Part shown: positions 10,359 through 63,600 of the stretch, piece by piece
Numbering within the stretch: the stretch's first letter is position 1
Layout: every line of letters starts with the position of its first letter
Assembly (NCBI GenBank): GCA_964650645.1
Contig: CAZYUH010000001.1
Location: 639,202 to 703,201 of the forward strand
DNA length: 64,000 nt
Reading direction: 5' to 3'
Source: an uncultured Candidatus Saccharibacteria bacterium
GTDB lineage: Bacteria > Patescibacteriota > Minisyncoccia > Phycocordibacterales > SBAW01
Position numbers and translations under genes: made by a program
The notes under the pieces: model-generated
What the model saw: the letters and a program-made list of their open reading frames with translations, nothing else
The model's database searches: none
What the model was told of the DNA's origin: nothing

Positions 10359-13202
10359 ATGAAGATTAGTTATAAATCCGCAGGCATCGCCCTGTTATTA
10401 GCGTTCCCGTTCCTCGGTTCCGCAGCCACTACCAGCGATATCCCCCTTACCTTCAACGACGCCGTGTTCAGCGGCGTTACGAATTCAGGTTCGGTGAATC
10501 TGCCTAACGGCGGGATGCTCTCCAATAAGAGCATCACCGTTGACGGCCCCGCCGCCTCGGTCCTCTGCCAGGGCTCCTGCGTCCTGGAGCGCGTGCGCGT
10601 CGACTCCGCCGAAGCCGTCCGCGTCGGCGGCAGCGGCACGGTAATGATTAACAACTCGTACCTCGAGGCTACCGGCTCGGGCGACGACCACGCGGACACC
10701 ATCCAGGCCTACGCGCCGGGCGACCGCGGCACTATCAGCATCTCCAACACGTCCATAGTCGCGCACAACACCGCCGCGACCGCGGGCCTCTTCGTGGCCG
10801 ACAACTGGACCGGCACCATCAATCTCAACAACGTGGTCTTTAACGGCGGCCCGTTCGGCCTGCGCCTCCACCCCGACACGGGCGGCGACAACATCATATA
10901 CGCCAAGGATGTCTACTTCGTGGGACCCTTCGGCTATAACCCGATCCTCATGAGCGACTACGGCGGCCATAAGAACATCATCAAGCAGTGGGAGAACGTG
11001 CGCCATGCGACGATCGTGAACGGCAAGCTCGTCCCCGGCGATCTCATCCCCTGCCCGGTTTCAAGCTGCGGCAATGAGTCGTCTCCGACCACCCCCACTA
11101 CCCCGACTACGCCCACGACGCCGACTGCTCCGGCTTCGACTAAGTTCTCGACCGGCAGCCGCGTGCAGGTAGTGAACGGCCCGCTCAACGTGCGCACGGC
11201 CGCCACCACGGCCGCCACCCTGCTGGGCTCCCAGACAAACGGTTCCGCCGGCACCGTCGTGGGCGGCCCCACGGCTCAGGGCGGCTACATTTGGTGGAAC
11301 ATCAACTACGACTCGGGCGTCGACGGCTGGAGCGTAGAGAACTACCTTGCGGCCTACACCGCGCCTACGACGCCGACTACTCCCACCACTCCAACGACCC
11401 CCACCACTCCGGAGGTCAAGGATATTGAAAAGCCCACGACGCCGTCCGGCCTTACCGCGACCGCGGATTCCTCTTCCCAGATCAGCCTCTCGTGGGAGGC
11501 GTCCAGCGACGACGTGGGCGTCACCGGCTACGAGGTGTTCCGCAACCGCAGGTATGTCGCCACGGCGGCGGGCACGACCTACGCCGATACGGGACTCTCC
11601 GACTCGACCACCTACAGGTACCAAGTGAGGGCCCTGGATGCCGCGAACAGGCACTCGTCCAAGTCCAAGGCCGCGAAGGCGAGGACCCTTGAGGACGGTT
11701 CGGCTCCCGCGACGCCGACGGAACCGACCGCTCCGACAGCCCCGTCCACGCCCACCTCAAGCACGGGAATCCCCCTCAGCTTCAACGACGCCATGTTCAG
11801 CGGCGCCGAGAATTCGGACGCGGTCAGGCTCTCTAACGGCGGATCCGTGAGCAACAAGAGCATTACCGACACCGGCGATACCGCATCGGTCGTCTGCACG
11901 GGCGCGTGCACCGTCGACCGCGTCCGCATCAGTTCGCGCGAGGGCGTCCGCGTCGGCGGCAGCGGCACCGTCAGCATCAATAATACGTATATGGAGGTCA
12001 ACGGCACCGGCGACGACCATGCGGACGGCATCCAGGCCTACGCGCCGGGCGACCGCGGCACCATAAAGATGCGCAATTCCACTATTGCCATGGGCACCAC
12101 GGCCGTTAACTCCGCGTTCTTCGTCGCAGACAACTGGACCGGCACTATCGACCTCGAGAACGTCGTCATCAAGGGCGGCCTGTACGGGTTCCGCGTCCAC
12201 CCCGACACGGGCGGCGACAACACTATCTCGATGAAGGACGTGTACTTCGTCGGGCCGTTCCAGTACGGCCAGATCCTCATGACCGACGTTGCGGGCCACA
12301 AGAACAACATCGTCAAGTGGGAGAACGTCCGCAATGCGACGATCGTGGACGGCAAGCTCGTCCCCGGCGCGCTTATCCCCTGCCCGGCTTCCAACTGCGG
12401 CAGCACGTCTTCAAGCGAGCCGGAAGACCCTGAGCCGGCCCCGGCGACTCCTGAAGAGCCCGCTCCTTCGCAGCCGTCCGCTCCCGCTCCTTCAAGCGGC
12501 AGCGTCTCCTCGCTCTGGAGCGCCTCCGATACTCCCGTAACCGCAAGCGATCCGGATACGAACGCGGTCGAGCTGGGCATGAAGTTCTCGACCAACGTCG
12601 CGGGCAAGGTAACGGGCGTGCGCTTCTACAAGGGCTCCCAGAACACCGGCACGCACACCGGCAGCCTGTGGTCCTCTTCGGGCAGCCTCCTTGCGACCGG
12701 CACGTTCACTAACGAGAGCGCTTCGGGCTGGCAGACGCTTACCTTCTCGTCTCCCGTCAGCATCTCGGCGAACACGACCTACGTGGTCTCCTACCACACC
12801 AGCGTAGGCAGGTACGCGGGCGACAAGGACTACTTCGGCAGCGCGCGCACCAGCGGCCCCATTACGGCGCCCAGGAACGCGGGCGTGTACAAGTACGGCG
12901 CGGGCGGCTTCCCCACCCAGTCGTACGAATCGAGCAACTACTGGGTAGACGTGCTGTTCGTGCCGGAGGGCGTAGTCGCGGGCGCATCCTACTCTCCGCT
13001 GGCTATCGGCGACACGGTCAAGACCAAGGCGAACCTCAACGTGCGCTCGGCGCCGGGCGGCGCGGTCGTGGGCGTAGCGTCCCTTGGCTCTGCCGGAGTG
13101 GTGCAATCCGCGCCGCAGTCCGCGGGCGGCATCACGTGGCTGCGCGTCACGTACCAGAACGGGCTCAGCGGCTGGAGCTCCGCCGGGTACCTGACCCGCT
13201 AG
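10359..13202 (+). CDS. Large secreted multi-domain surface protein: 2x pectate-lyase-like beta-helix domain, PT-rich linkers, SH3b, fibronectin-III, DUF4082, C-terminal SH3b
   Basis: Signal peptide MKISYKSAGIALLLAFPFLGSAAT; two ~215-aa paralogous domains (IPLTFNDAVFSG... and IPLSFNDAMFSG...); TPTTP repeats; FN3 (ISLSWEASSDDVGVTGYEVFRN); DUF4082 signature (VELGMKFSTNVAGKVTGVRFYKG...NYWVDVLF). Confidence 0.7.
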   Translation: MKISYKSAGIALLLAFPFLGSAATTSDIPLTFNDAVFSGVTNSGSVNLPNGGMLSNKSITVDGPAASVLCQGSCVLERVRVDSAEAVRVGGSGTVMINNSYLEATGSGDDHADTIQAYAPGDRGTISISNTSIVAHNTAATAGLFVADNWTGTINLNNVVFNGGPFGLRLHPDTGGDNIIYAKDVYFVGPFGYNPILMSDYGGHKNIIKQWENVRHATIVNGKLVPGDLIPCPVSSCGNESSPTTPTTPTTPTTPTAPASTKFSTGSRVQVVNGPLNVRTAATTAATLLGSQTNGSAGTVVGGPTAQGGYIWWNINYDSGVDGWSVENYLAAYTAPTTPTTPTTPTTPTTPEVKDIEKPTTPSGLTATADSSSQISLSWEASSDDVGVTGYEVFRNRRYVATAAGTTYADTGLSDSTTYRYQVRALDAANRHSSKSKAAKARTLEDGSAPATPTEPTAPTAPSTPTSSTGIPLSFNDAMFSGAENSDAVRLSNGGSVSNKSITDTGDTASVVCTGACTVDRVRISSREGVRVGGSGTVSINNTYMEVNGTGDDHADGIQAYAPGDRGTIKMRNSTIAMGTTAVNSAFFVADNWTGTIDLENVVIKGGLYGFRVHPDTGGDNTISMKDVYFVGPFQYGQILMTDVAGHKNNIVKWENVRNATIVDGKLVPGALIPCPASNCGSTSSSEPEDPEPAPATPEEPAPSQPSAPAPSSGSVSSLWSASDTPVTASDPDTNAVELGMKFSTNVAGKVTGVRFYKGSQNTGTHTGSLWSSSGSLLATGTFTNESASGWQTLTFSSPVSISANTTYVVSYHTSVGRYAGDKDYFGSARTSGPITAPRNAGVYKYGAGGFPTQSYESSNYWVDVLFVPEGVVAGASYSPLAIGDTVKTKANLNVRSAPGGAVVGVASLGSAGVVQSAPQSAGGITWLRVTYQNGLSGWSSAGYLTR

Positions 13203-28479: not shown

Positions 28480-28721
28480 CCCTTAGCGTAGCATGGGTTT
28501 TAGGCAGGTTGCCCGCCGGCCCGGCATTGCTGCGGCCGTCCACCAGTACGAAAAAACCTGCCTCAAGGCAGTCTTTCGTGTCTTTGTGGTCACAGATACT
28601 CCAGTCGCCGCCGCGACCGGATTTCCGCGCCCCCGACTCGCTCCCGCGCCTGCTGGCGCGGGGCCCGCTCCGTCTTCCACAAACGCGAAAGTGCATGCCC
28701 CGGCATGCACTTCTCGTCGCT
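28480..28721. repeat. tRNA-linked hairpin-array element, locus D (partial family member)
   Basis: Contains the family motifs ccgtccaccagtacgaaaaaacctgcctcaaggcag and ttgtggtcac plus nested hairpins (gcatgccccggcatgc); lies immediately 3' of tRNA-Ala(GGC). Confidence 0.5.
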
Positions 28722-28723
28722 TG

Positions 28724-28796
28724 TGGACCCTACCGGGATCGAACCGGTCACCTCTTCCATGCCATGGAAGCGCTCTACCAAATGAGCTAAGGGCCC
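28724..28796 (-). tRNA. tRNA-Ala (anticodon GGC)
   Basis: Minus strand GGGCCCTTAGCTCATTTGGTAGAGCGCTTCCATGGCATGGAAGAGGTGACCGGTTCGATCCCGGTAGGGTCCA; G3:U70, anticodon loop AT-GGC-AT; CCA not encoded. Confidence 0.85.
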
Positions 28797-36825: not shown

Positions 36826-37103
36826 CGCAATGCCTTGCAGGGTGGCATTGCTCCGGCCGTCCAGTTTTGTCGTATGTGGTCACAAGTTCGTTTGCGCCGT
36901 CGCGCAAACGCCTCGCGACCCCGGCTCGCCGTCCCGCAAGTGCGGGACATGGCTGCGCCTTCCACTTTGTGGTCAGGGATATTTTCAGCGCCGTCGCGCT
37001 GAAAATTCCACGACCCTGGCTCGGCTGTTTTGCCTGCTGGCAAAACATGCCTCCGCCTTCCACCAGTACGAAAAAATCTGCCTCAAGGCAGATTATTTTC
37101 GTC
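36826..37103. repeat. tRNA-linked hairpin-array element, locus A
   Basis: Series of perfect tetraloop hairpins (GTTTGCGC-CGTC-GCGCAAAC; GTCCCGC-AAGT-GCGGGAC; TTTTCAGCGC-CGTC-GCGCTGAAAA; GTTTTGCC-TGCT-GGCAAAAC) separated by ccactttgtggtca-type flanks, ending in terminator ctgcctcaaggcag+T-tract abutting the tRNA 3' end. Confidence 0.6.
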
Positions 37104-37177
37104 TGGTGGACCCTGCGAGAATCGAACTCGCGCCTGTGCAATGCGAATGCACCGTTTTACCACTTAACTAAGGGCCC
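37104..37177 (-). tRNA. tRNA-Ala (anticodon CGC), CCA encoded
   Basis: Minus strand GGGCCCTTAGTTAAGTGGTAAAACGGTGCATTCGCATTGCACAGGCGCGAGTTCGATTCTCGCAGGGTCCACCA; G3:U70; D-arm atypical. Confidence 0.7.
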
Positions 37178-37178
37178 C

Positions 37179-37267
37179 GGTCGGGATGCCGAGAATCGAA
37201 CTTGCCTCCGGATACACGCACCCGGCGGCAGACCGGATACGCACCCTGCCATATTCGTTCGGAAGCT
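37179..37267 (-). pseudogene. tRNA-like fragment: duplicated tRNA-Pro 3' end (23-bp exact copy of T-arm/acceptor) plus degenerate body
   Basis: ggtcgggatgccgagaatcgaac at 37179-37201 is identical to 37269-37291; no complementary 5' acceptor strand and the T-stem is broken. Confidence 0.35.
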
Positions 37268-37341
37268 TGGTCGGGATGCCGAGAATCGAACTCGGATTAT
37301 ACGCACCCGAAGCGTACGTAATACCATTATACCACATCCCG
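37268..37341 (-). tRNA. tRNA-Pro (anticodon CGG), CCA encoded
   Basis: Minus strand CGGGATGTGGTATAATGGTATTACGTACGCTTCGGGTGCGTATAATCCGAGTTCGATTCTCGGCATCCCGACCA. Confidence 0.75.
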
Positions 37342-38394: not shown

Positions 38395-38616
38395 AATACT
38401 TTATTTTTTAAGGATTGTCAAGATTTATTTTGCCGTCCCGCCAGTGCGGGACATGGCTGCGCCCTGCACATGTTATTTGTGGTCAGGGATATTTTCAGCG
38501 CCGTCGCGCTGAAAATTCCACGACCCTGGCTCGGCTGTTTTACCTGCTGGCAAAACATGCCTCCGCCCTGCACATGTACGAAAAAACACCCAGCAGTGGG
38601 TGTTTGTTTCGTCATG
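38395..38616. repeat. tRNA-linked hairpin-array element, locus B (shares ~130 nt near-identical block with locus A)
   Basis: ccgtcccgccagtgcgggacatggctgcgcc...tttgtggtcagggatattttcagcgccgtcgcgctgaaaattccacgaccctggctcggctgtttt(a/g)cctgctggcaaaacatgcctccgcc; differs from locus A by 2 substitutions. Confidence 0.6.
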
Positions 38617-38690
38617 TGCACCCTTCAGGATTCGAACCTGAGGCCTCACCCGTGTGAAGGGTGCGCTCTAACCAACTGAGCTAAGGGTGC
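38617..38690 (-). tRNA. tRNA-Val (anticodon CAC)
   Basis: Minus strand GCACCCTTAGCTCAGTTGGTTAGAGCGCACCCTTCACACGGGTGAGGCCTCAGGTTCGAATCCTGAAGGGTGCA. Confidence 0.8.
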
Positions 38691-46555: not shown

Positions 46556-46892
46556 CGCGCGCCTATCTGGATATACAGCCGTCCACTTTATGGTCACAAG
46601 TTCGTTTGCGCCGCCACGCAAACGCCGCGTCCACCTAGCGCCTGCCGCAAAGCGGCATCGGCGCTTGCCTCCGGCACCGGATGAAAGGCAAAGCAGTTTG
46701 CCTTTCATCCCCGCCTCGCGGTTTTGCAAGTGCAAAACATCGCTGCGGCCGTCCACTTTGTGGTCACAAGTCGAATTTTTTCGTCAAAAAATTCGCTCGC
46801 GACCCCGGCTCGCCGTCCCGCCAGTGCGGGACATGGCTGCGCCTTCCACAAAACCAGAAAACCTGCCTCAAGGCAGGTATTTCTGTGTTTTG
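46556..46892. repeat. tRNA-linked hairpin-array element, locus C (longest copy)
   Basis: Two ccgtccacttt(g/a)tggtcacaag units each followed by a hairpin, plus a GGATGAAAGGCAAA-GCAG-TTTGCCTTTCATCC perfect 14-bp stem, a gtttgcgccgccacgcaaac hairpin and a GAATTTTTT-CGTC-AAAAAATTC hairpin; shares cgcgaccccggctcgccgtcccgccagtgcgggacatggctgcgccttccac with locus A; terminal cctgcctcaaggcagg+T-tract. Confidence 0.6.
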
Positions 46893-46965
46893 TGGACCCT
46901 ACCGGGATCGAACCGGTCACCTCCTCATTGCAAATGAGGCGCTCTACCAGATGAGCTAAGGGCCC
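46893..46965 (-). tRNA. tRNA-Ala (anticodon TGC)
   Basis: Minus strand GGGCCCTTAGCTCATCTGGTAGAGCGCCTCATTTGCAATGAGGAGGTGACCGGTTCGATCCCGGTAGGGTCCA; G3:U70. Confidence 0.85.
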
Positions 46966-59975: not shown

Positions 59976-62822
59976 TTAGAGCGTGGGTGCCACGGGCTCG
60001 GTGCAGGCAAGGTCGCGGATCTTGCGTATGGTCATGCCGGCAACCGTGCCCGTGGGGCGCGTCAGGCCCAGCGGCGCCAGGATGTCGGCGGCATACCTGC
60101 TTTGGAACGCGCTCACGGCTGCGAAGGTCTGCGGCCCGAAGAAGTTCGTGCCCGGAAGCGACGCGCCCTGGGTGTTGAGGAACCGCTGGAGCTTGGCGAC
60201 CTCGGGGCTCACCATGCCGCGGTAGAGGTTCTGCGTGACCGCGAGCGAGCAGTCGGTCGCGGCGCCCAGCACCGCGCCGCCCGTTCCTATATTGACCGTA
60301 CCCATCCCGAAGGCGGGCAGCATGGGCTCGCCGCTGCCCTGCCTGAACTTTGCGCCCGTAACAGTCGCGAAGTTGCGGTACGTTCCCGCCGTGCTTGAGG
60401 CTGCGAACTCGACCGAGTACGTGAGCGTTATCTGGTCGCCGGAAGCGAGGTCCTGGAGGTCCCACGAGCGGTGGTACATGATACCGCCCTCGGGAGTGAA
60501 GAGCGTATCGGCGAGCGTAGCGCCGTACAAGGGCCCTGCGTCCTTTGCGTTGGTCACGACCACTTTGTAGTCGACCACCTTGGGCGTCGTCGTGCTGATG
60601 CGCACCACCGTCTTCTCGACCGTGACGCGCGGCTCGTCGTTGGAGCTTGCGGGCACCGGCGGCGTGTTGTCGGGCTTGGCGACCGTCTTGGGGCGGGAAT
60701 CGCCGCCGCCTCCGCCGCCTCCCCCGCCGCCGCGACTGCCGCCGGACGAGGGCGGATTGACGACGTCGAGCAGGGCGACCGTGAACGACGCCTGGGCGCT
60801 GGAGGTATCGCCGTCGCTGAGCGCCGACACCGAGATGGGCACGGGCACGGACGTGCCCTGCGGGATGGAGCCCACGCGCGCCGTGTAGGTGAAGGTGCGC
60901 GACTCGCCGCGGCCCACGGTCGGAATATGCCACTCGCGGCCCTCGTCCGTGCGCACGCCGTCGGTATCGGTAAAGCTCAGCTGGTTATGGTCGAAGCCGG
61001 CCTTGAGCGTGATGTCGTCGGCGTCGCGGTCGCCGTTGTTAGTGATGGTGAAATCGTACGCGACGTCCGTGCCTGGGGTGACCGTGGCCGCCGTCGTCCT
61101 CGCCTCGAGCTCGAGGTCGGACCGGCCGAACGTGATGTCGCCGTTCCATTCGCCCAGCACGTTGAAGAGCGCGAATATCCAGTTGCGGCCGACGATGTTG
61201 GTGTTGATGAGATTGATGACGTTCGCGACGGCGTACGCGTCGCCTGTTATGACGTGCGCGACGCCATCCTCGGTGTAGGCATTGTTGTGTCCCGTATTCG
61301 CGGTGACGTCCACGTTGTTCTCTACCGCAGCCGCATTGGTCGAGGATGCGACGAAGGTCGATGAATTGAAGCAGTTGTTGACCGGCTCATCCTCGGGGTG
61401 GTCCGAACGGGGCTCCTTGCAGTTGGCACCTGCCGCGCCCTCGGGGTTCTGCGCGCCGCTCTGGTCGCCTACCGGCACATTATCCTCATCCACCTCCTCG
61501 TTAGTAACGAGCACCAGGGTCGAGGTCGAGGTGATGCCGTCGCGGGTGGCGGCATCGTACACGCGCTTAACATGCAGCGCGCCGGGCAAGCTCTTGACGT
61601 CGCCCCTCCACTCGCCCGCAACGCGGAACATGAAGAGCGCCGACGTGCCGCCCACGTAGTTGTTGTTGGCGTTGGTGTAGGTGGTGGCCTTGCTGTAGGC
61701 GTCGCCGGTCGAGACGATGCCGCTTCCCTCGCCCGTAGTCGAAGCGGTGTTAGAGCCGGTATCCGCGCCCGCGGTCGTGGTGCCGGTCAGCGCGAGCTGA
61801 TTCTCGTTGTAGACGCTGTAGGAGCTTGAATTCATCTCCGGCGCCGAGCCCTCGTGCGCGAAGAGCCGCCTGAAGAAGTCGTCGCCCGGCAGGGTGATGT
61901 CGCCGTTGAGGTCGCCGAAGCTGTTGAACGCCGCCAGGAGATAGCTTGAGTTGACTATATTGGTGTTGACCAGGTTGACCACGTTGGCGGCCGCGTACGC
62001 GTCGCCCGACGTTACGGACGCGTCGCCGGTATCGGTCGTGGAGGCCGTGTTGCCGCCCGCGTCGGCGCGGACGATGACGCTGTTGGTGACCGTCGCGGTG
62101 TTGCCGCTGAGCACGTTGATGTTGCTGGAGGTCGGGCAGGTCAGGAGCGTGCACTGCGCCTCGCCCGTCTCCTCGTTGACCGTCGGGGAATTGCCCGCCT
62201 GGCCCTCGAAGAAGTAGCCGAGGTCGTAATCGCGCAGGTCGAGCCCGGCCGGGAACAGCTGGTTGAGGAACAGCAGGAGGCCCTGCGAGTTGAATATGTT
62301 GGTGTTGATGAGGTTGAGCACGTTAGCGAACGCGAAGGCGCCGCCGGTCACGATAGTAGCCGTGCCCTGCCCGCCATCGGCGACGTTGGCGCCGGTAGAG
62401 GCGGTCGATGTGGAGAAATTGTTCACGAGCGCCTCGTTGGTCGAGGTTGCGGTGAATCCGGATGAGTTGAGGCAGCCGCCGTTCTCTGCCACCTGCTCGG
62501 CCGAGCAGGCGCTGTCGACATTGCTCGCGTCGTTCTTGTTGACGGAGTTCTCCACGGACGTGGAGGCGCTGGCGGCGCCCGTATCTATCGTGCCGCCCAC
62601 GTCGTGCTGGCCGCCCGTGCCGTCGCTCGAGGTGGTCGCGACGACCTGGCCCGCGTTGGCGCCAGGCGCGCCGTCGGTCGAGGTGGCGTTCTCGTTATCG
62701 GCGCGCACGGGCGCGGCGAGCGCAAGCGTCGCGGCGACAAGCAGGAGCGCCGCGAAAGAGCTGACAAGTACGGATCGCCTGAATGGTAGGTACGTCATGT
62801 AGGAATTAAAGTAAGCTGTCAA
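59976..62822 (-). CDS. Large secreted surface protein: four ~60-aa 'TGDAY...VNL(I/V)NTNI' repeats, DUF11-like domain, poly-Gly tract, C-terminal peptidoglycan-binding (PG_binding_1) domain
   Basis: Signal peptide; repeats at four positions; GGSRGGGGGGGGGGD run; C-terminus VAKLQRFLNTQGASLPGTNFFGPQTFAAVSAFQ matches PGBD. Confidence 0.6.
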   Translation of the reverse strand: MTAYFNSYMTYLPFRRSVLVSSFAALLLVAATLALAAPVRADNENATSTDGAPGANAGQVVATTSSDGTGGQHDVGGTIDTGAASASTSVENSVNKNDASNVDSACSAEQVAENGGCLNSSGFTATSTNEALVNNFSTSTASTGANVADGGQGTATIVTGGAFAFANVLNLINTNIFNSQGLLLFLNQLFPAGLDLRDYDLGYFFEGQAGNSPTVNEETGEAQCTLLTCPTSSNINVLSGNTATVTNSVIVRADAGGNTASTTDTGDASVTSGDAYAAANVVNLVNTNIVNSSYLLAAFNSFGDLNGDITLPGDDFFRRLFAHEGSAPEMNSSSYSVYNENQLALTGTTTAGADTGSNTASTTGEGSGIVSTGDAYSKATTYTNANNNYVGGTSALFMFRVAGEWRGDVKSLPGALHVKRVYDAATRDGITSTSTLVLVTNEEVDEDNVPVGDQSGAQNPEGAAGANCKEPRSDHPEDEPVNNCFNSSTFVASSTNAAAVENNVDVTANTGHNNAYTEDGVAHVITGDAYAVANVINLINTNIVGRNWIFALFNVLGEWNGDITFGRSDLELEARTTAATVTPGTDVAYDFTITNNGDRDADDITLKAGFDHNQLSFTDTDGVRTDEGREWHIPTVGRGESRTFTYTARVGSIPQGTSVPVPISVSALSDGDTSSAQASFTVALLDVVNPPSSGGSRGGGGGGGGGGDSRPKTVAKPDNTPPVPASSNDEPRVTVEKTVVRISTTTPKVVDYKVVVTNAKDAGPLYGATLADTLFTPEGGIMYHRSWDLQDLASGDQITLTYSVEFAASSTAGTYRNFATVTGAKFRQGSGEPMLPAFGMGTVNIGTGGAVLGAATDCSLAVTQNLYRGMVSPEVAKLQRFLNTQGASLPGTNFFGPQTFAAVSAFQSRYAADILAPLGLTRPTGTVAGMTIRKIRDLACTEPVAPTL

Positions 62823-62913: not shown

Positions 62914-63600
62914 CTAGATGCGAACGCGGAGGAAGTTCGTGTTGAGCACGTTGACCGCGCCGGAGCGGGAGGTCGAGTCGCCGGTGCGTACCGTGCCGCC
63001 CAAGCCGCCTGCGCCGCCATGGCCGCCTGCGCCGCCGGAGCCGGAGGTCGAGTCGCCCTGGTTGCCGGTCTTGTTGGCCGTGCCGGAGTTGCCGCCGTTG
63101 TCGCCCGAGCCGCCAGTGGAGCCGGCCGCCGCGTTGAGGCCGGTCGACGCGAGAGCGTTCGTGGTCTCATCGATGTCGCCGGTATTCTTCTGGCTCGCGG
63201 TTGCCGACGAGCTATTGAGGCCGCCGCGGATGCTTACGCGGGTGTCGTTGCTGTTGGCCTGGTTGACCGCGCCAGCCTCGGACATCGCAGCGCCCGTCTC
63301 TACCAAGCCGCCTTCGCCGCCGTTGCCGCCGTTGCCGCCAGAGCCGGCATTGCCGCTCTTGGCGTTGCCGTTGTCGCCGCCCTGGGAAGCATTGCCGGAG
63401 TTGCCGCCGTTGCTGCCGTTGCCGCCGGTCGAACCGTCCGCGAAGTTGAGGCCGGTGTTCGATACGGCGTTAGTGTTGCTCGTAACCGTGCCCGAGTTCG
63501 TGTTGCTGATCTTGATCGAGCTGCTATTGACCGCTGCGAAGGCAGGGGTCGCGGTTGCGAGCATGCCGAGCGCAGTAAGTGCTGCAAGAGTCTTTTTCAT
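62914..63600 (-). CDS. Secreted Gly/Asn/Ser-rich protein with two copies of the same 'NTN' repeat motif as the adjacent large protein
   Basis: Signal peptide MKKTLAALTALGMLATATPAFA; AVNQANSNDTRV and AVNVLNTNFLRV motifs after G/N/S-rich stretches. Confidence 0.5.
   Translation of the reverse strand: MKKTLAALTALGMLATATPAFAAVNSSSIKISNTNSGTVTSNTNAVSNTGLNFADGSTGGNGSNGGNSGNASQGGDNGNAKSGNAGSGGNGGNGGEGGLVETGAAMSEAGAVNQANSNDTRVSIRGGLNSSSATASQKNTGDIDETTNALASTGLNAAAGSTGGSGDNGGNSGTANKTGNQGDSTSGSGGAGGHGGAGGLGGTVRTGDSTSRSGAVNVLNTNFLRVRI

Follow-up and report, generated by a model that had tools for sequence, protein, structure and literature searches.

Integrative elements that target tRNA genes include cis-mobilizable elements, and their tRNA integration sites have sublocations at the T-loop and at the 3' end. 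Tycheposons of Prochlorococcus are integrase-less derivatives of tRNA/tmRNA-targeting elements (bioRxiv 10.1101/2020.12.28.424599). The repeat units described here share the classic target set of integrative elements, same-strand tRNA and tmRNA 3' ends, and likewise have a partial copy of the tRNA as a flanking repeat, bounded on one side by the T-loop or the extreme 3' end and on the other by the tRNA end. Further likenesses are tandem stacking with older inserts outward, remnants, strain-level variation and, at one metagenome locus (L061), a large serine recombinase. Unlike these elements, almost all of the units are gene-free and ~100-200 bp long, and no integrase is tied to the small copies. 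They also contain a covarying junction whose closing helix uses the tRNA-derived repeat, which is undescribed for tRNA-targeting integrative elements.

Integron attC sites and the forked hairpin of CTX-phi attP are folded single-strand recombination sites. The units resemble them in their strand-specific fold, fixed unpaired or bulged bases, free stems, promoter-less cassette arrays and proposed trans-acting enzyme. Unlike attC or dif-like sites, which they match in neither sequence nor architecture, the units target the tRNA end and not attI or dif; the R and L boxes of attC (RYYYAAC/GTTRRRY) are absent from the unit alignment, and no integrase gene is found among the window ORFs examined. 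RtT repeats (RF00391) are 178-nt repeats at one locus of enterobacteria, downstream of E. coli tyrT, without a conserved three-way junction, and are co-transcribed and released by tRNA processing. Our units also lie in tandem directly 3' of a tRNA and carry a copy of its 3' end, but they occur at many tRNAs per genome, across a superphylum and without an Rfam match.

Pneumococcal BOX, REP/BIME and MITE elements are scattered, conserved in sequence rather than covarying, and not tRNA-linked; REP elements, imperfect palindromes of about 35 nt, are tied to RAYT. The units are similarly short, non-coding, multi-copy and modular; they too can form hairpins and differ in how many modules they contain. 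MITEs have terminal inverted repeats and a target-site duplication of fixed length. In the units, X' and X'' (defined below) are inverted repeats and X and X'' direct repeats, of a variable length (5-28 nt) that tracks tRNA boundaries, at tRNA ends and not at dispersed sites. Group IIC introns insert just after intrinsic terminators and have a six-domain structure with a GUGYG start. Units of the window type also start right after a terminator hairpin and U-tract and have an internal strand complementary to upstream sequence; unlike the introns, they are 85-110 nt long, lack the six domains, GUGYG and a reverse transcriptase, and leave Rfam intron models unmatched. Plant tRNA-snoRNA dicistronic genes are processed by RNase Z, according to a passage in PMC12045711. 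The units share with such genes, and with mascRNA-type processing, the placement of a structured RNA after or between tRNAs from which tRNA enzymes could release it; the small RNAs of dicistronic tRNA genes are of established functional classes and occur in single copy, whereas unit copies are dynamic. TIGR arrays of CPR bacteria and phages consist of 36-nt or box C/D stem units with two loop spacers and an adjacent gene for Tas, a Nop-domain protein (PMC12045711). Judged by that description, we rejected a TIGR assignment: the present arrays have 4-nt loops, no C/D boxes, paired variable stems and no adjacent Tas-like gene.

The window (the whole 64,000-nt stretch of DNA analysed) contains five tRNA genes, all on the minus strand according to ARAGORN and Rfam. 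Four of them, tRNA-Pro being the exception, carry the repeats in the spacer 3' of the gene (Table 1). The ~100-base element with its tRNA-tail copy is present there in one to two full copies plus fragments, a load of 150-330 bp per locus. An earlier note on this DNA had described four tRNA-linked, co-oriented loci, and all four lie on the tRNA-sense strand and match our covariance model. The model has no other matches in the window and none on the plus strand; E-values at the window loci range from about 1e-12 to 1e-22, and the predicted folds of single units are much more stable than those of shuffled sequences (z -4.3 to -7.3). One alpha-type unit (36868-36970) is suppressed in the cmsearch output by its overlap with a better-scoring match. 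The hairpins with 4-nt loops that the note quoted are all present, as is its CTGCCTCAAGGCAG plus T-tract terminator, which lies inside a CCACCAG...CTGGTGG stem directly next to the tRNA; this stem pairs with the tRNA 3' end. The hairpins do not form a string of independent elements, however, but are arms of one three-way-junction unit.

Table 1. tRNA genes, terminator modules and repeat units in the window.
Feature	Position	Strand	Basis
tRNA-Ala(GGC), locus 1 anchor	28723..28796	-	ARAGORN, Rfam
Locus 1 trailer hairpin	28677..28725	-	sequence, spacer survey
Locus 1 full three-way-junction unit, divergent, outside model seed	28578..28685	-	cmsearch 54 bits; fold z -4.3
Locus 1 terminator module	28540..28589	-	terminator scan (28558-28571, both strands)
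Locus 1 distal 5'-partial unit, X' - ACG - GCC - GCAG - P2 only	28503..28546	-	sequence
tRNA-Ala(CGC), locus 2 anchor	37104..37177	-	ARAGORN, Rfam
Locus 2 terminator module	37060..37109	-	sequence, terminator scan
Locus 2 unit 1, beta type	36961..37068	-	cmsearch 83 bits; fold z -6.3
Locus 2 unit 2, alpha type	36868..36970	-	model seed member; fold z -6.1
Locus 2 distal 5'-partial unit	36827..36864	-	sequence
tRNA-Pro	37268-37341	-	ARAGORN, Rfam
tRNA-Val(CAC), locus 3 anchor	38616..38690	-	ARAGORN, Rfam
Locus 3 terminator module	38570..38619	-	sequence, spacer survey
Locus 3 full unit, beta type	38471..38578	-	cmsearch 85 bits; fold z -7.3
Locus 3 distal 5'-partial alpha-type unit	38432..38472	-	sequence
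tRNA-Ala(TGC), locus 4 anchor	46892..46965	-	ARAGORN, Rfam
Locus 4 terminator module	46846..46895	-	sequence, terminator scan
Locus 4 full unit, alpha type, P3 distal stem GAAUUUUUU	46752..46854	-	cmsearch 90 bits, E 1e-22; fold z -4.9
Locus 4 degenerate unit	46586..46756	-	cmsearch 15 bits over 46582-46675
Locus 4 distal 5'-partial unit, GTGGACGGC...	46569..46586	-	sequence

The module between the tRNA and the first unit has the GC-rich hairpin, U-tract and upstream A-tract of a bidirectional intrinsic terminator, and a terminator scan called 28558-28571, 37075-37094 and 46861-46878 on both strands. The trailer hairpin of locus 1 pairs CGTTTGTGG with the tRNA 3' end CCACAAGCG and encloses a GTGCATGCC/GGCATGCAC hairpin; the terminator module of this locus runs CCACAAAG, A-tract, CTGCCTTGAGGCAG, U-tract, CTGGTGG. 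CTGGTGG pairs with the tRNA end CCACCAG at locus 2, and GTTTTGTGG with CCACAAAAC at locus 4, each enclosing the terminator called there. The locus 3 stem pairs GCACATG with CATGTGC and so covaries with the Val-specific tRNA end. A repeat search of the window recovered the terminator module at all four loci (block D7), a block present in four copies (D5) and a 111-nt block with 95% identity between 36966-37076 and 38476-38586 (D6).

Unit 1 of locus 2 has the P3 loop GACG, the P3 distal stem UUUUCAGCGC and the P2 stem UUUUGCC; the full unit of locus 3 is 95% identical to it and has a G.U pair in P2 that would become A.C on the plus strand. Unit 2 of locus 2 combines the P3 distal stem GUUUGCGC with the P2 stem UCCCGC, and the degenerate unit of locus 4 has a decayed core and an additional inserted hairpin, AUGAAAGGCAAACUGCUUUGCCUUUCAU. 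At locus 2 the distal partial unit runs into the -10-like TATACT of an acylphosphatase gene; the one at locus 3 precedes a TTGACA in the promoter region of speE, and the one at locus 4 a TTGACA-N17-CATTAT promoter at 46549-46521.

Each unit is a three-way junction of 85-110 nt with a closing helix, P1, and two arms. One arm is formed by Pa-[GGA/GA loop]-P2, and the other by P3, in which one G.U pair and one bulged A are invariant. In P1, the 5' strand (X') faces a 3' strand (X'') that copies the 3' end of the tRNA. The covariance model rests on 74 distinct units, of which 3 come from the window and 71 from other genomes. We measured covariation on a MAFFT alignment (A1) that was not fitted to the structure. 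In this alignment 87.1% of cells are paired (36-43% in slid controls), 516 cells are changed on both sides (80-189) and the covariation score is 0.441 (0.065-0.122); none of 500 shuffles reached the observed values. Compensatory changes so far above controls are the generic mark of a conserved structured RNA. They uphold the earlier claim of compensatory stems with conserved flanks, with the refinement that the junction sequence, too, is strongly conserved. Unit length, conserved junctions and self-complementary variable stems also agree with the note's view that this is not a CRISPR array, in which identical direct repeats of 24-48 nt alternate with unique spacers of similar length.

The conserved core has several features typical of RNA, including a GNRA-like joining strand, tandem G.A pairs and the invariant G.U. 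Alignment columns 54, 61 and 96 covary three ways. The internal loop has the form 5'-C-G(G/C)A-G / 5'-C-GA-G, with GA invariant on its 3' side and GGA (44 units), GCA (23 units) or ACA (7 units) on its 5' side. This layout would fit the tandem G.A pairs of a kink-turn, with a bulge of 1 nt compared with the 3-nt bulge of kink-turns. P3 contains 111 G.U pairs versus ~1 A.C, and folding is 5-11 kcal/mol more favourable for the sense strand than for the opposite strand. The structure is formed on the tRNA-sense strand only.

This strand specificity bears on the view that the repeats work as DNA, either as palindromes bound by a protein or of the REP/BIME kind (with a RAYT or IS200-type transposase) or as cruciform spacers. 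Perfect intergenic palindromes in modular mosaics do recall BIME and BOX elements. However, the invariant G.U and 32 further G.U pairs of P3 would be A.C on the other strand, and freely varying stems with fixed loops and junctions are the opposite of a sequence-specific duplex binding site. Unlike REP/BIME elements, the units also have tRNA-linked sites and lack a conserved GTAG-type 5' tetranucleotide, and no Y1/RAYT domain is encoded by the window ORFs examined. We regard a DNA-level role as highly improbable.

Comparisons with described RNA families returned no counterpart. Rfam 15 at gathering thresholds finds the five tRNAs and nothing else in the whole window; at relaxed thresholds (E<=10 for the region of the finding, E<=5 for nine further loci), no family matches a unit position on the unit strand. 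Literature searches on tRNA-linked structured RNAs of Patescibacteria/CPR and on motifs downstream of tRNAs returned no description of the element, in line with the note, which did not recognise it as a described family. We also rejected three specific candidates. A tRNA-like cloverleaf lacks an upstream acceptor-type partner (by eye, L062 and L140) and is not matched by the tRNA model. An analogy to group II domains 5/6 rests on the similar layout of P3; the sizes and the bulge differ, and the supposed 'AGC' covaries. An intron in a DUF2075-like ATPase gene (L049, L132) has differing insertion points and no downstream exon that continues the protein.

A pattern scan of metagenomes identified at least 120 loci, and the covariance model found 149 further copies beyond the window, a total of 155 with the six window copies. 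Same-strand tRNA genes adjoin 118 of the 155 copies, and three copies lie just after a tmRNA, so that tRNA adjacency is strong without being universal. The element is found next to tRNA or tmRNA genes in more than 100 environmental contigs, and about half of the tRNAs in carrier contigs bear it. The core is common to contigs of GC 0.33-0.74 and to at least two Parcubacteria lineages. The window genome itself is Patescibacteria (Paceibacteria-like), and a second carrier comes from a different Parcubacteria lineage. The family is widespread in candidate-phyla-radiation bacteria and not private to the window genome. Some copies follow protein genes, and some lie within defence islands. A U-tract is present in 38 of 92 distinct tRNA-to-unit spacers across all loci. 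The order tRNA-Lys(CTT) - unit - tRNA-Leu(TAG), without a terminator, recurs in at least six diverged lineages. The three outcomes that the note had named as contrary to its proposal (scattered copies without tRNA linkage, no compensatory covariation, or a known REP/BIME/MITE family with its transposase) were none of them observed. What the note had not recognised is that the arms form one junction, that the family has a wide CPR spread and a tmRNA linkage, and that each unit is followed by a tRNA 3'-end copy.

This copy is specific to the neighbouring tRNA. Of 90 distinct units next to a tRNA, 21 have an exact repeat of 10 nt or more of the upstream tRNA 3' end after GUGAC, compared with 0.3% in cross-locus controls. 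One class of units (class A) has a repeat of 19-28 exact nt, from T-loop C56 to within a few bases of the tRNA end. The window class has a repeat of 5-11 nt (C72-A73-C plus 3-8 trailer bases), given as only 4-7 nt for the copies of the window. A direct repeat of part of the tRNA thus flanks the insert, as in an att identity block, and the tRNA genes upstream have the scores of intact genes. X' is complementary to the repeat and differs from tRNA to tRNA. Among the roles listed in the note (a processed RNA, protein-binding decoys, insulators or a mobile element), a unit that ends in a tRNA 3'-end copy favours the mobile element targeting tRNA 3' ends.

A complementary strand that changes along with its target segment also raises the idea of a mobile RNA, in which the unit would be a small ribozyme that cleaves or ligates at GUGAC-C, or X' would guide a trans-acting enzyme to the tRNA T-loop or 3' end. 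The tRNA-repeat junction does lie exactly at the foot of P3/P1 beside invariant bases, and the compact junction has RNA-tertiary-like features. In its general layout (8 bp, then a bulge, a helix and a tetraloop, and CGC with a G.U), P3 resembles a group II domain 5 or U6 stem. However, Rfam 15 ribozyme and guide-RNA families show no similarity at E up to 5-10, an associated reverse transcriptase or nuclease was not found, and ordinary compensatory evolution of P1 explains the complementarity of X' equally well. We judge a self-acting or guide-bearing RNA very improbable. It is quite improbable that the unit is the cis-acting RNA or folded single-stranded DNA of a guide-directed insertion class, in which X' would select the insertion point by pairing with the T-loop or 3' end of a tRNA or tmRNA, and the junction would recruit a trans-acting recombinase or itself catalyse cleavage and joining at GUGAC-C. 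If true, this would be a programmable cassette system free of protein genes, with arrays at the tRNA genes of the smallest bacterial genomes.

The element looks like either an undescribed miniature insertion cassette or a tRNA-operon RNA. Our tentative preference, at a probability of about 0.45, is that the repeats are cargo-less insertion cassettes stacked at tRNA 3' ends, which bring their own terminators and use the junction as a cis-acting fold. A cassette would comprise a hairpin, usually a bidirectional intrinsic terminator, whose outer stem X' pairs with X (the last tRNA bases and first trailer bases); the conserved core with its two arms, Pa-[GGA/GA]-P2 and P3; and the tRNA 3'-end repeat X'', which can close the core as P1 by pairing with X'. 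It may enter by recombination within a short tRNA-identical segment; in one class this segment would reach from the T-loop as far as the 3' end, and in the window class it would be confined to the extreme 3' end. As the cassette supplies a tRNA tail and a new terminator, the tRNA gene would be kept intact. Older cassettes would be shifted distally, and the arrays then reshuffled by recombination between copies. A factor encoded elsewhere would read the junction fold in single-stranded RNA or DNA; none of the cassettes encodes a protein.

Several observations support insertion of cassettes. First, the direct repeats are tRNA-specific, with a complementary P1 strand, and the targets are same-strand tRNA and tmRNA 3' ends. 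Second, inserts with genes lie between the tRNA and the unit with its repeat at two loci: L061 has the order tRNA-Val, large serine recombinase gene, ~5 kb, hairpin and unit, exact 19-nt tRNA-Val repeat, and L099 the order tRNA-Asp, 3.6 kb cargo, unit, 17-nt repeat. Finally, arrays turn over between strains and decay distally, and the fold is confined to the tRNA-sense strand. A strain with 99% speE identity has other units in another order at tRNA-Ala(CGC), a relative at 72% speE identity has none, and L027 (75% speE amino-acid identity) has one unit ~97% identical in nucleotides to unit 2 of locus 2. Degenerate and 5'-partial units occupy the distal ends of arrays.

The same data hold points against cassettes. 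No recombinase or transposase was found for the small, cargo-less copies. As the earlier note had stated for RAYT and transposase genes, transposase, recombinase and RAYT genes are absent from the ~29 largest ORFs of the 64-kb window. Homologues of the L061 serine recombinase lie near units in L054 and L093/L147; L061 is the one clear locus for this recombinase as the general enzyme. Another reading of L061 is that an island came to lie between the tRNA and a unit that was there before it. Distal truncation points are imprecise, with a spread of ~30 nt that is unlike clean site-specific recombination; L035 has a nearly exact duplicate of an ~80-nt block, the expected product of a plain tandem duplication; and the repeats in the window are only 4-7 nt long. 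The RNA-typical core motifs are not obviously needed by a recombination site, and the recurring tRNA-Lys(CTT)/tRNA-Leu(TAG) arrangement is more in keeping with a conserved host RNA than with repeated insertion.

A structured RNA of tRNA transcription units that benefits the host, co-transcribed and released by RNase Z and RNase P, is a possible but rather doubtful alternative. It could be a stable small RNA, a protein-binding scaffold or a cis-acting device for 3' processing, termination or insulation; the P3 helix, together with the invariant UGACCA, would imitate the acceptor end of a tRNA, and the tRNA-tail repeat would come from local duplication or gene conversion and be retained because P1 needs it. 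The strong junction covariation, the invariant junction bases, G.U and bulged A, the 54/61/96 triple and the retention of the core across the GC range and Parcubacteria lineages given above all speak for such an RNA. In the six or more lineages in which the unit lies between co-oriented tRNAs without a terminator, it must be transcribed. At L061, the 19-nt repeat is exact and the neighbouring pseudo-tRNA piece decayed, which suggests selection on the repeat. However, the repeat is specific to the adjacent tRNA and bounded by C56 and the tRNA end, like attL/attR pairs. Near-identical strains differ in the number, order and type of their units, truncation or decay affects many copies, and copies also follow protein genes or sit in defence islands. 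With a strong terminator before the first unit at most window loci, little RNA would be made there. Under the cassette reading, units between co-oriented tRNAs without a terminator are probably also transcribed and excised by RNase Z and RNase P, and the excised unit would be a by-product or part of the cassette life cycle.

Candidate-phyla-radiation genomes are smaller than 1 Mb, yet the element occupies four of the five tRNA loci in the window. A mobile cassette class would account for the continued shuffling of DNA at tRNA hot-spots in streamlined, symbiotic genomes; the other likely meaning is an unrecognised RNA partner of tRNA maturation. Because the repeats break short-read assemblies, tRNA neighbourhoods of carriers are systematically under-assembled.

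A search of genome contigs for the junction motif TGACCAYAAAGTGGAMGGC returned 21 single matches in unrelated taxa, and those sampled are coding and lack other unit motifs. About 17 matches are expected by chance from the information content of the pattern and the size of the collection, which suggests that the window species and its close relatives lie outside this collection or do not have that exact junction. Logan contigs terminate within an array. Viral contigs gave one match, in what appears to be the same 34,711 bp contig as metagenome locus L047.

We aligned 74 distinct units with MAFFT, 71 of them from other genomes, and folded the alignment; the consensus is a three-way junction. Its closing helix, P1, pairs X' with X'', where X is the tRNA 3' end with the first trailer bases, X' its complementary strand downstream and X'' a repeat of X after the unit core. 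The 3-nt joining strand after P1 is, with the preceding G, usually GNRA-like (GCGA, GGAA, GAAA or GCAA). Helix Pa (GSC/GSC; CG 39, GC 33) is separated from P2 by an internal loop whose 3' strand is always GA and whose 5' strand is GGA, GCA or ACA. P2 (GSC/GSC; GC 42, CG 32) carries a variable hairpin and is joined by RGG to P3, whose base (GUCGYG.../...CRUGAC) contains an invariant G.U pair and an invariant bulged A. The variable distal hairpin of P3 is the CGTC-loop hairpin of the earlier note (GACG in the RNA sense). That note described a string of separate hairpins; the hairpins are present, but as arms of a single unit.

Structural support for the three-way junction is strong. In this alignment, which was not fitted to the structure, 87.1% of cells are paired (36-43% with slid partners), 516 cells are changed on both sides (80-189 slid), and the covariation score is 0.441 (0.065-0.122 slid); none of 500 shuffles reaches the observed value of any of these measures. 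The compensatory stem changes proposed earlier are thus borne out, and a covariance model was built. Alignment columns 54, 61 and 96 covary strictly as a set of three (G/C/G in 58 units, A/U/C in 15) and correspond, in the unit at 46752-46854, to the R of GCCRGGG, the Y of UCGYG and the base before UGACC. With A/U/C, P3 has a U.C mismatch and CAGGG can pair instead with CCCUG. This triple covariation points to either a base triple or a conformational switch.

The fold is a property of the tRNA-sense strand. Read in that sense, P3 in the alignment has 111 G.U pairs versus about one A.C, and three imperfect window stems have G.U in the tRNA sense and A.C in the opposite sense. The sense strand folds into the junction in RNAfold (z -4.3 to -7.3), with an advantage of 5-11 kcal/mol in stability over the antisense strand. 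A DNA-level palindrome or REP-like element is therefore highly improbable, as that reading fails on a strand-specific fold.

In the window, the tRNA-linked repeat is real: ARAGORN and Rfam place the tRNA genes, a repeat search recovered blocks common to the loci, and the matches of the covariance model are confined to four loci. All five window tRNA genes lie on the minus strand, and four, tRNA-Pro excepted, are followed in the tRNA sense by arrays with a common grammar. X pairs with X' about 35 nt further downstream (CCACCAG/CTGGTGG, GCACATG/CATGTGC and CCACAAAAC/GTTTTGTGG), and the enclosed hairpin scores as a bidirectional intrinsic terminator in three loci. One or two units of ~105 nt follow, ending ...GUGACCAC AAAG. 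Distal to the arrays are promoter-like sites and then the next gene. Genes around the arrays are housekeeping (atp operon, uppS, acylphosphatase, speE/speH, cytochrome oxidase, leuS, uvrABC, tgt); consistent with the earlier note, no transposase or integrase was seen among the window genes examined (~29 largest ORFs).

Features of the window arrays and their tRNA genes
Feature	Position	Strand	Evidence or remark
tRNA-Ala(GGC)	28723-28796	minus	ARAGORN + Rfam
tRNA-Ala(CGC)	37104-37177	minus	ARAGORN + Rfam
tRNA-Pro(CGG)	37268-37341	minus	ARAGORN + Rfam
tRNA-Val(CAC)	38616-38690	minus	ARAGORN + Rfam
tRNA-Ala(TGC)	46892-46965	minus	ARAGORN + Rfam
Bidirectional intrinsic terminator	28558-28571	both	3' of first unit behind tRNA-Ala(GGC)
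Bidirectional intrinsic terminator	37075-37094	both	terminator scan
Bidirectional intrinsic terminator	46861-46878	both	terminator scan
CUGC/ACUGCU-loop example	38589-38600		by eye
Promoter-like site TTGACA-N17-CATTAT	46549-46521		distal to array
tRNA-Pro(CGG) 3' 23 nt, GTTCGATTCTCGGCATCCCGACC	37269-37291	minus	T-loop to end
Exact repeat of the 23-nt tail	37179-37201	minus	67 nt downstream, between tRNA-Pro and tRNA-Ala(CGC)

Adjacency to tRNA genes was confirmed, but not as a universal rule. Among 155 units (149 metagenome copies among the matches listed and six in the window), 118 have a same-strand tRNA beside them, usually ending 25-50 nt upstream; in ~20 cases a tRNA starts within ~25 nt downstream. 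In a pattern-match survey (120 matches listed), where a tRNA lies within 400 nt of the match, it is on the opposite strand in only 5 cases. Three tRNA-less units lie 54-84 nt after tmRNA. Conversely, 104 of 223 tRNAs of carrier loci have a unit at most 120 nt downstream, often for Lys (22/24), Arg (18/23), Ile (7/8) and Ala (13/19) and rarely or never for Cys (0/13), Pro (1/13), Thr (0/6) and Tyr (0/4). The tRNA-to-unit spacer always forms a hairpin pairing into the tRNA 3' end, with a U-tract in 38 of 92 distinct spacers. By eye, terminator-like spacer hairpins very frequently have the loop CUGC or ACUGCU regardless of stem sequence (e.g. in contig loci L046, L052, L067, L092 and L149).

Many diverged contigs share the order tRNA-Lys(CTT), short hairpin, unit, tRNA-Leu(TAG). 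The U-tract is lacking in at least six, so the unit is probably transcribed there. This conserved operon and the RNA-like tertiary features of the unit favour the main rival to the reading we prefer, a host RNA of tRNA operons, which we consider somewhat unlikely.

Units also carry a copy of the tRNA tail. In class A units, defined by the P1 3' strand CAAnUCC and also preceded by CUGC/ACUGCU-loop hairpins, the bases after GUGAC reproduce exactly the stretch of the upstream tRNA that starts at T-loop C56 and runs to the 3' end (28 nt in L035, 26 in L086, 21 in L102, L059 and L129, 17-20 in six more loci), with the right-hand boundary at most a few bases from the tRNA end. In class B, the window type, C72-A73-C is copied together with 3-8 bases of the trailer (CACAAAG), to a maximum of 11 nt in L133; in units following tmRNA the repeat is present but degenerate. 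The 5' strand of P1 complements the copy, varying with the tRNA. At least 10 exact nucleotides are common to unit and own tRNA tail in 21 of 90 distinct units, versus 0.3% of cross-locus pairs. Among window tRNA genes, tRNA-Ala(CGC) alone encodes CCA; the others, like most carrier-contig tRNAs, have C74 then A/U (e.g. ...CCAC AAAA). Conservation therefore extends to the first bases of the trailer (CAAAG), and these are identical to those after the unit's UGACCA.

At two loci, kilobases separate the tRNA from the unit and repeat. L099 has tRNA-Asp, 3.6 kb of ordinary genes, a unit and a 17-nt repeat. In L061, tRNA-Val abuts a large serine recombinase gene and is followed after ~5 kb by a decayed pseudo-tRNA-Val piece, a hairpin, a unit and an exact 19-nt repeat. 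That the repeat is exact beside a decayed piece suggests selective maintenance, which favours the host-RNA rival. Serine-recombinase homologues also occur near units in L054 and L093/L147. The tRNA-Pro tail repeat in the window has no three-way-junction unit and resembles an att-scar-like partial tRNA; the same arrangement, degenerate, in L028 (6950-6978; a 72%-identity relative) indicates that it is old. In L129 (~270-560, minus), a second copy of the tRNA-Met tail with its whole terminator follows the unit; between the two terminators the loop is inverted (GTG vs CAC), a footprint of template switching or cruciform processing.

We favour, at a probability of roughly 0.45, the reading that units are cargo-less insertion cassettes at tRNA genes, because the partial-tRNA repeat, tRNA and tmRNA targets, stacking, remnants and strain differences form an integrative-element signature. 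Such signatures at tRNA genes have been described for e.g. tycheposons (bioRxiv 10.1101/2020.12.28.424599); units are likewise flanked by a partial-tRNA repeat, from the T-loop (or extreme 3' end) to the tRNA end. A cassette, inserted by a putative enzyme, would restore the tRNA tail and bring a terminator. The three-way junction would be its cis-acting structure, acting as RNA or possibly as single-stranded DNA, and presumed recombination between copies would scramble arrays further. More radically, the units might be guide-bearing or catalytic mobile RNA, which we judge quite improbable.

Related genomes differ at these loci. In L024 (a JGI contig; strain with 99% SpeE identity), the tRNA-Ala(CGC) locus differs from the window in terminator module, unit types and order, its proximal part resembling the window tRNA-Ala(TGC) locus; the Ala(TGC) locus likewise differs between these strains. 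In L027 (75% SpeE identity), tRNA-Ala and tRNA-Pro flank one unit, whose nucleotide identity to the window unit at 36868-36970 is ~97%; in L028 (72%), a plain terminator is all that is present. L027 also has, ~500 nt downstream of the unit (64-166) and directly upstream of cytochrome-oxidase genes, a gene for a 323-aa reverse transcriptase (RVT_1; 664-1635). This gene, absent at that place from the window strain, is probably of DGR or retron type and unrelated to the unit.

Each of the four window arrays closes with a unit reduced to its 5' part, as do those in L035, L038, L048, L053 and L076, with distal truncation points spread over ~30 nt. In L035, a block of ~80 nt (C56 to tRNA end, spacer and unit 5' part) is duplicated almost exactly, and in L092 a unit copy follows a protein gene. 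L049 (2699-2791, minus) and L132 (7251-7343, minus) have nearly identical units lying in frame within the 3' end of truncated genes for DUF2075-like P-loop ATPases; the position in the gene differs between the two, and GUGAGG plus a hairpin precedes each unit. Neighbours are an HNH endonuclease/HsdM gene and a DGQHR-domain gene (restriction/defence) in a GC-rich organism, and the flanks have diverged whereas the unit has not. These units may reflect mobility into defence islands of a GC-rich, possibly non-CPR organism.

The element is far broader than is visible from the window alone. A genome-contig collection scanned with the junction motif gave chance matches only. Metagenome contigs scanned with a core-plus-3'-end pattern gave at least 120 matches; ~110 of those listed are genuine and come from many different projects. 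The covariance model found 149 further copies in metagenome loci (among the matches listed), with GC contents from 0.33 to 0.74; viral contigs gave a single match. For the window AtpD, a protein from an NCBI contig of 754 kb is 100% identical, and the named relatives are Candidatus Adlerbacteria, Paceibacterota and Parcubacteria; RuvB of L035, another carrier, falls among Komeilibacteria, Falkowbacteria and Parcubacteria. The element therefore spans several candidate phyla radiation lineages. As the earlier note supposed, it matches no catalogued family: Rfam 15 at permissive thresholds gave no match to the unit, and no description was found in the literature searched. We read it as belonging to tRNA-targeting insertion elements or to tRNA-linked structured RNAs.

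Short-read contigs of this species, L001/L002 (Logan; 1-75) and L024 (1-160), begin or end inside arrays; unit repeats therefore break assemblies, and tRNA neighbourhoods of carrier genomes are likely under-represented in public assemblies. Elsewhere in the window, the repeat search located a 9-nt periodic GCCGCC-rich repeat (62973-63435), which read on the minus strand would give a Gly-rich repeat segment, directly 5' of and outside a 948-aa DUF11/PG-binding ORF (59976-62822, minus). A 947-aa fn3/DUF4082/SH3 surface-protein gene contains an internal duplication of ~380 nt (10440-10822 vs 11769-12151, 73-78% identity).
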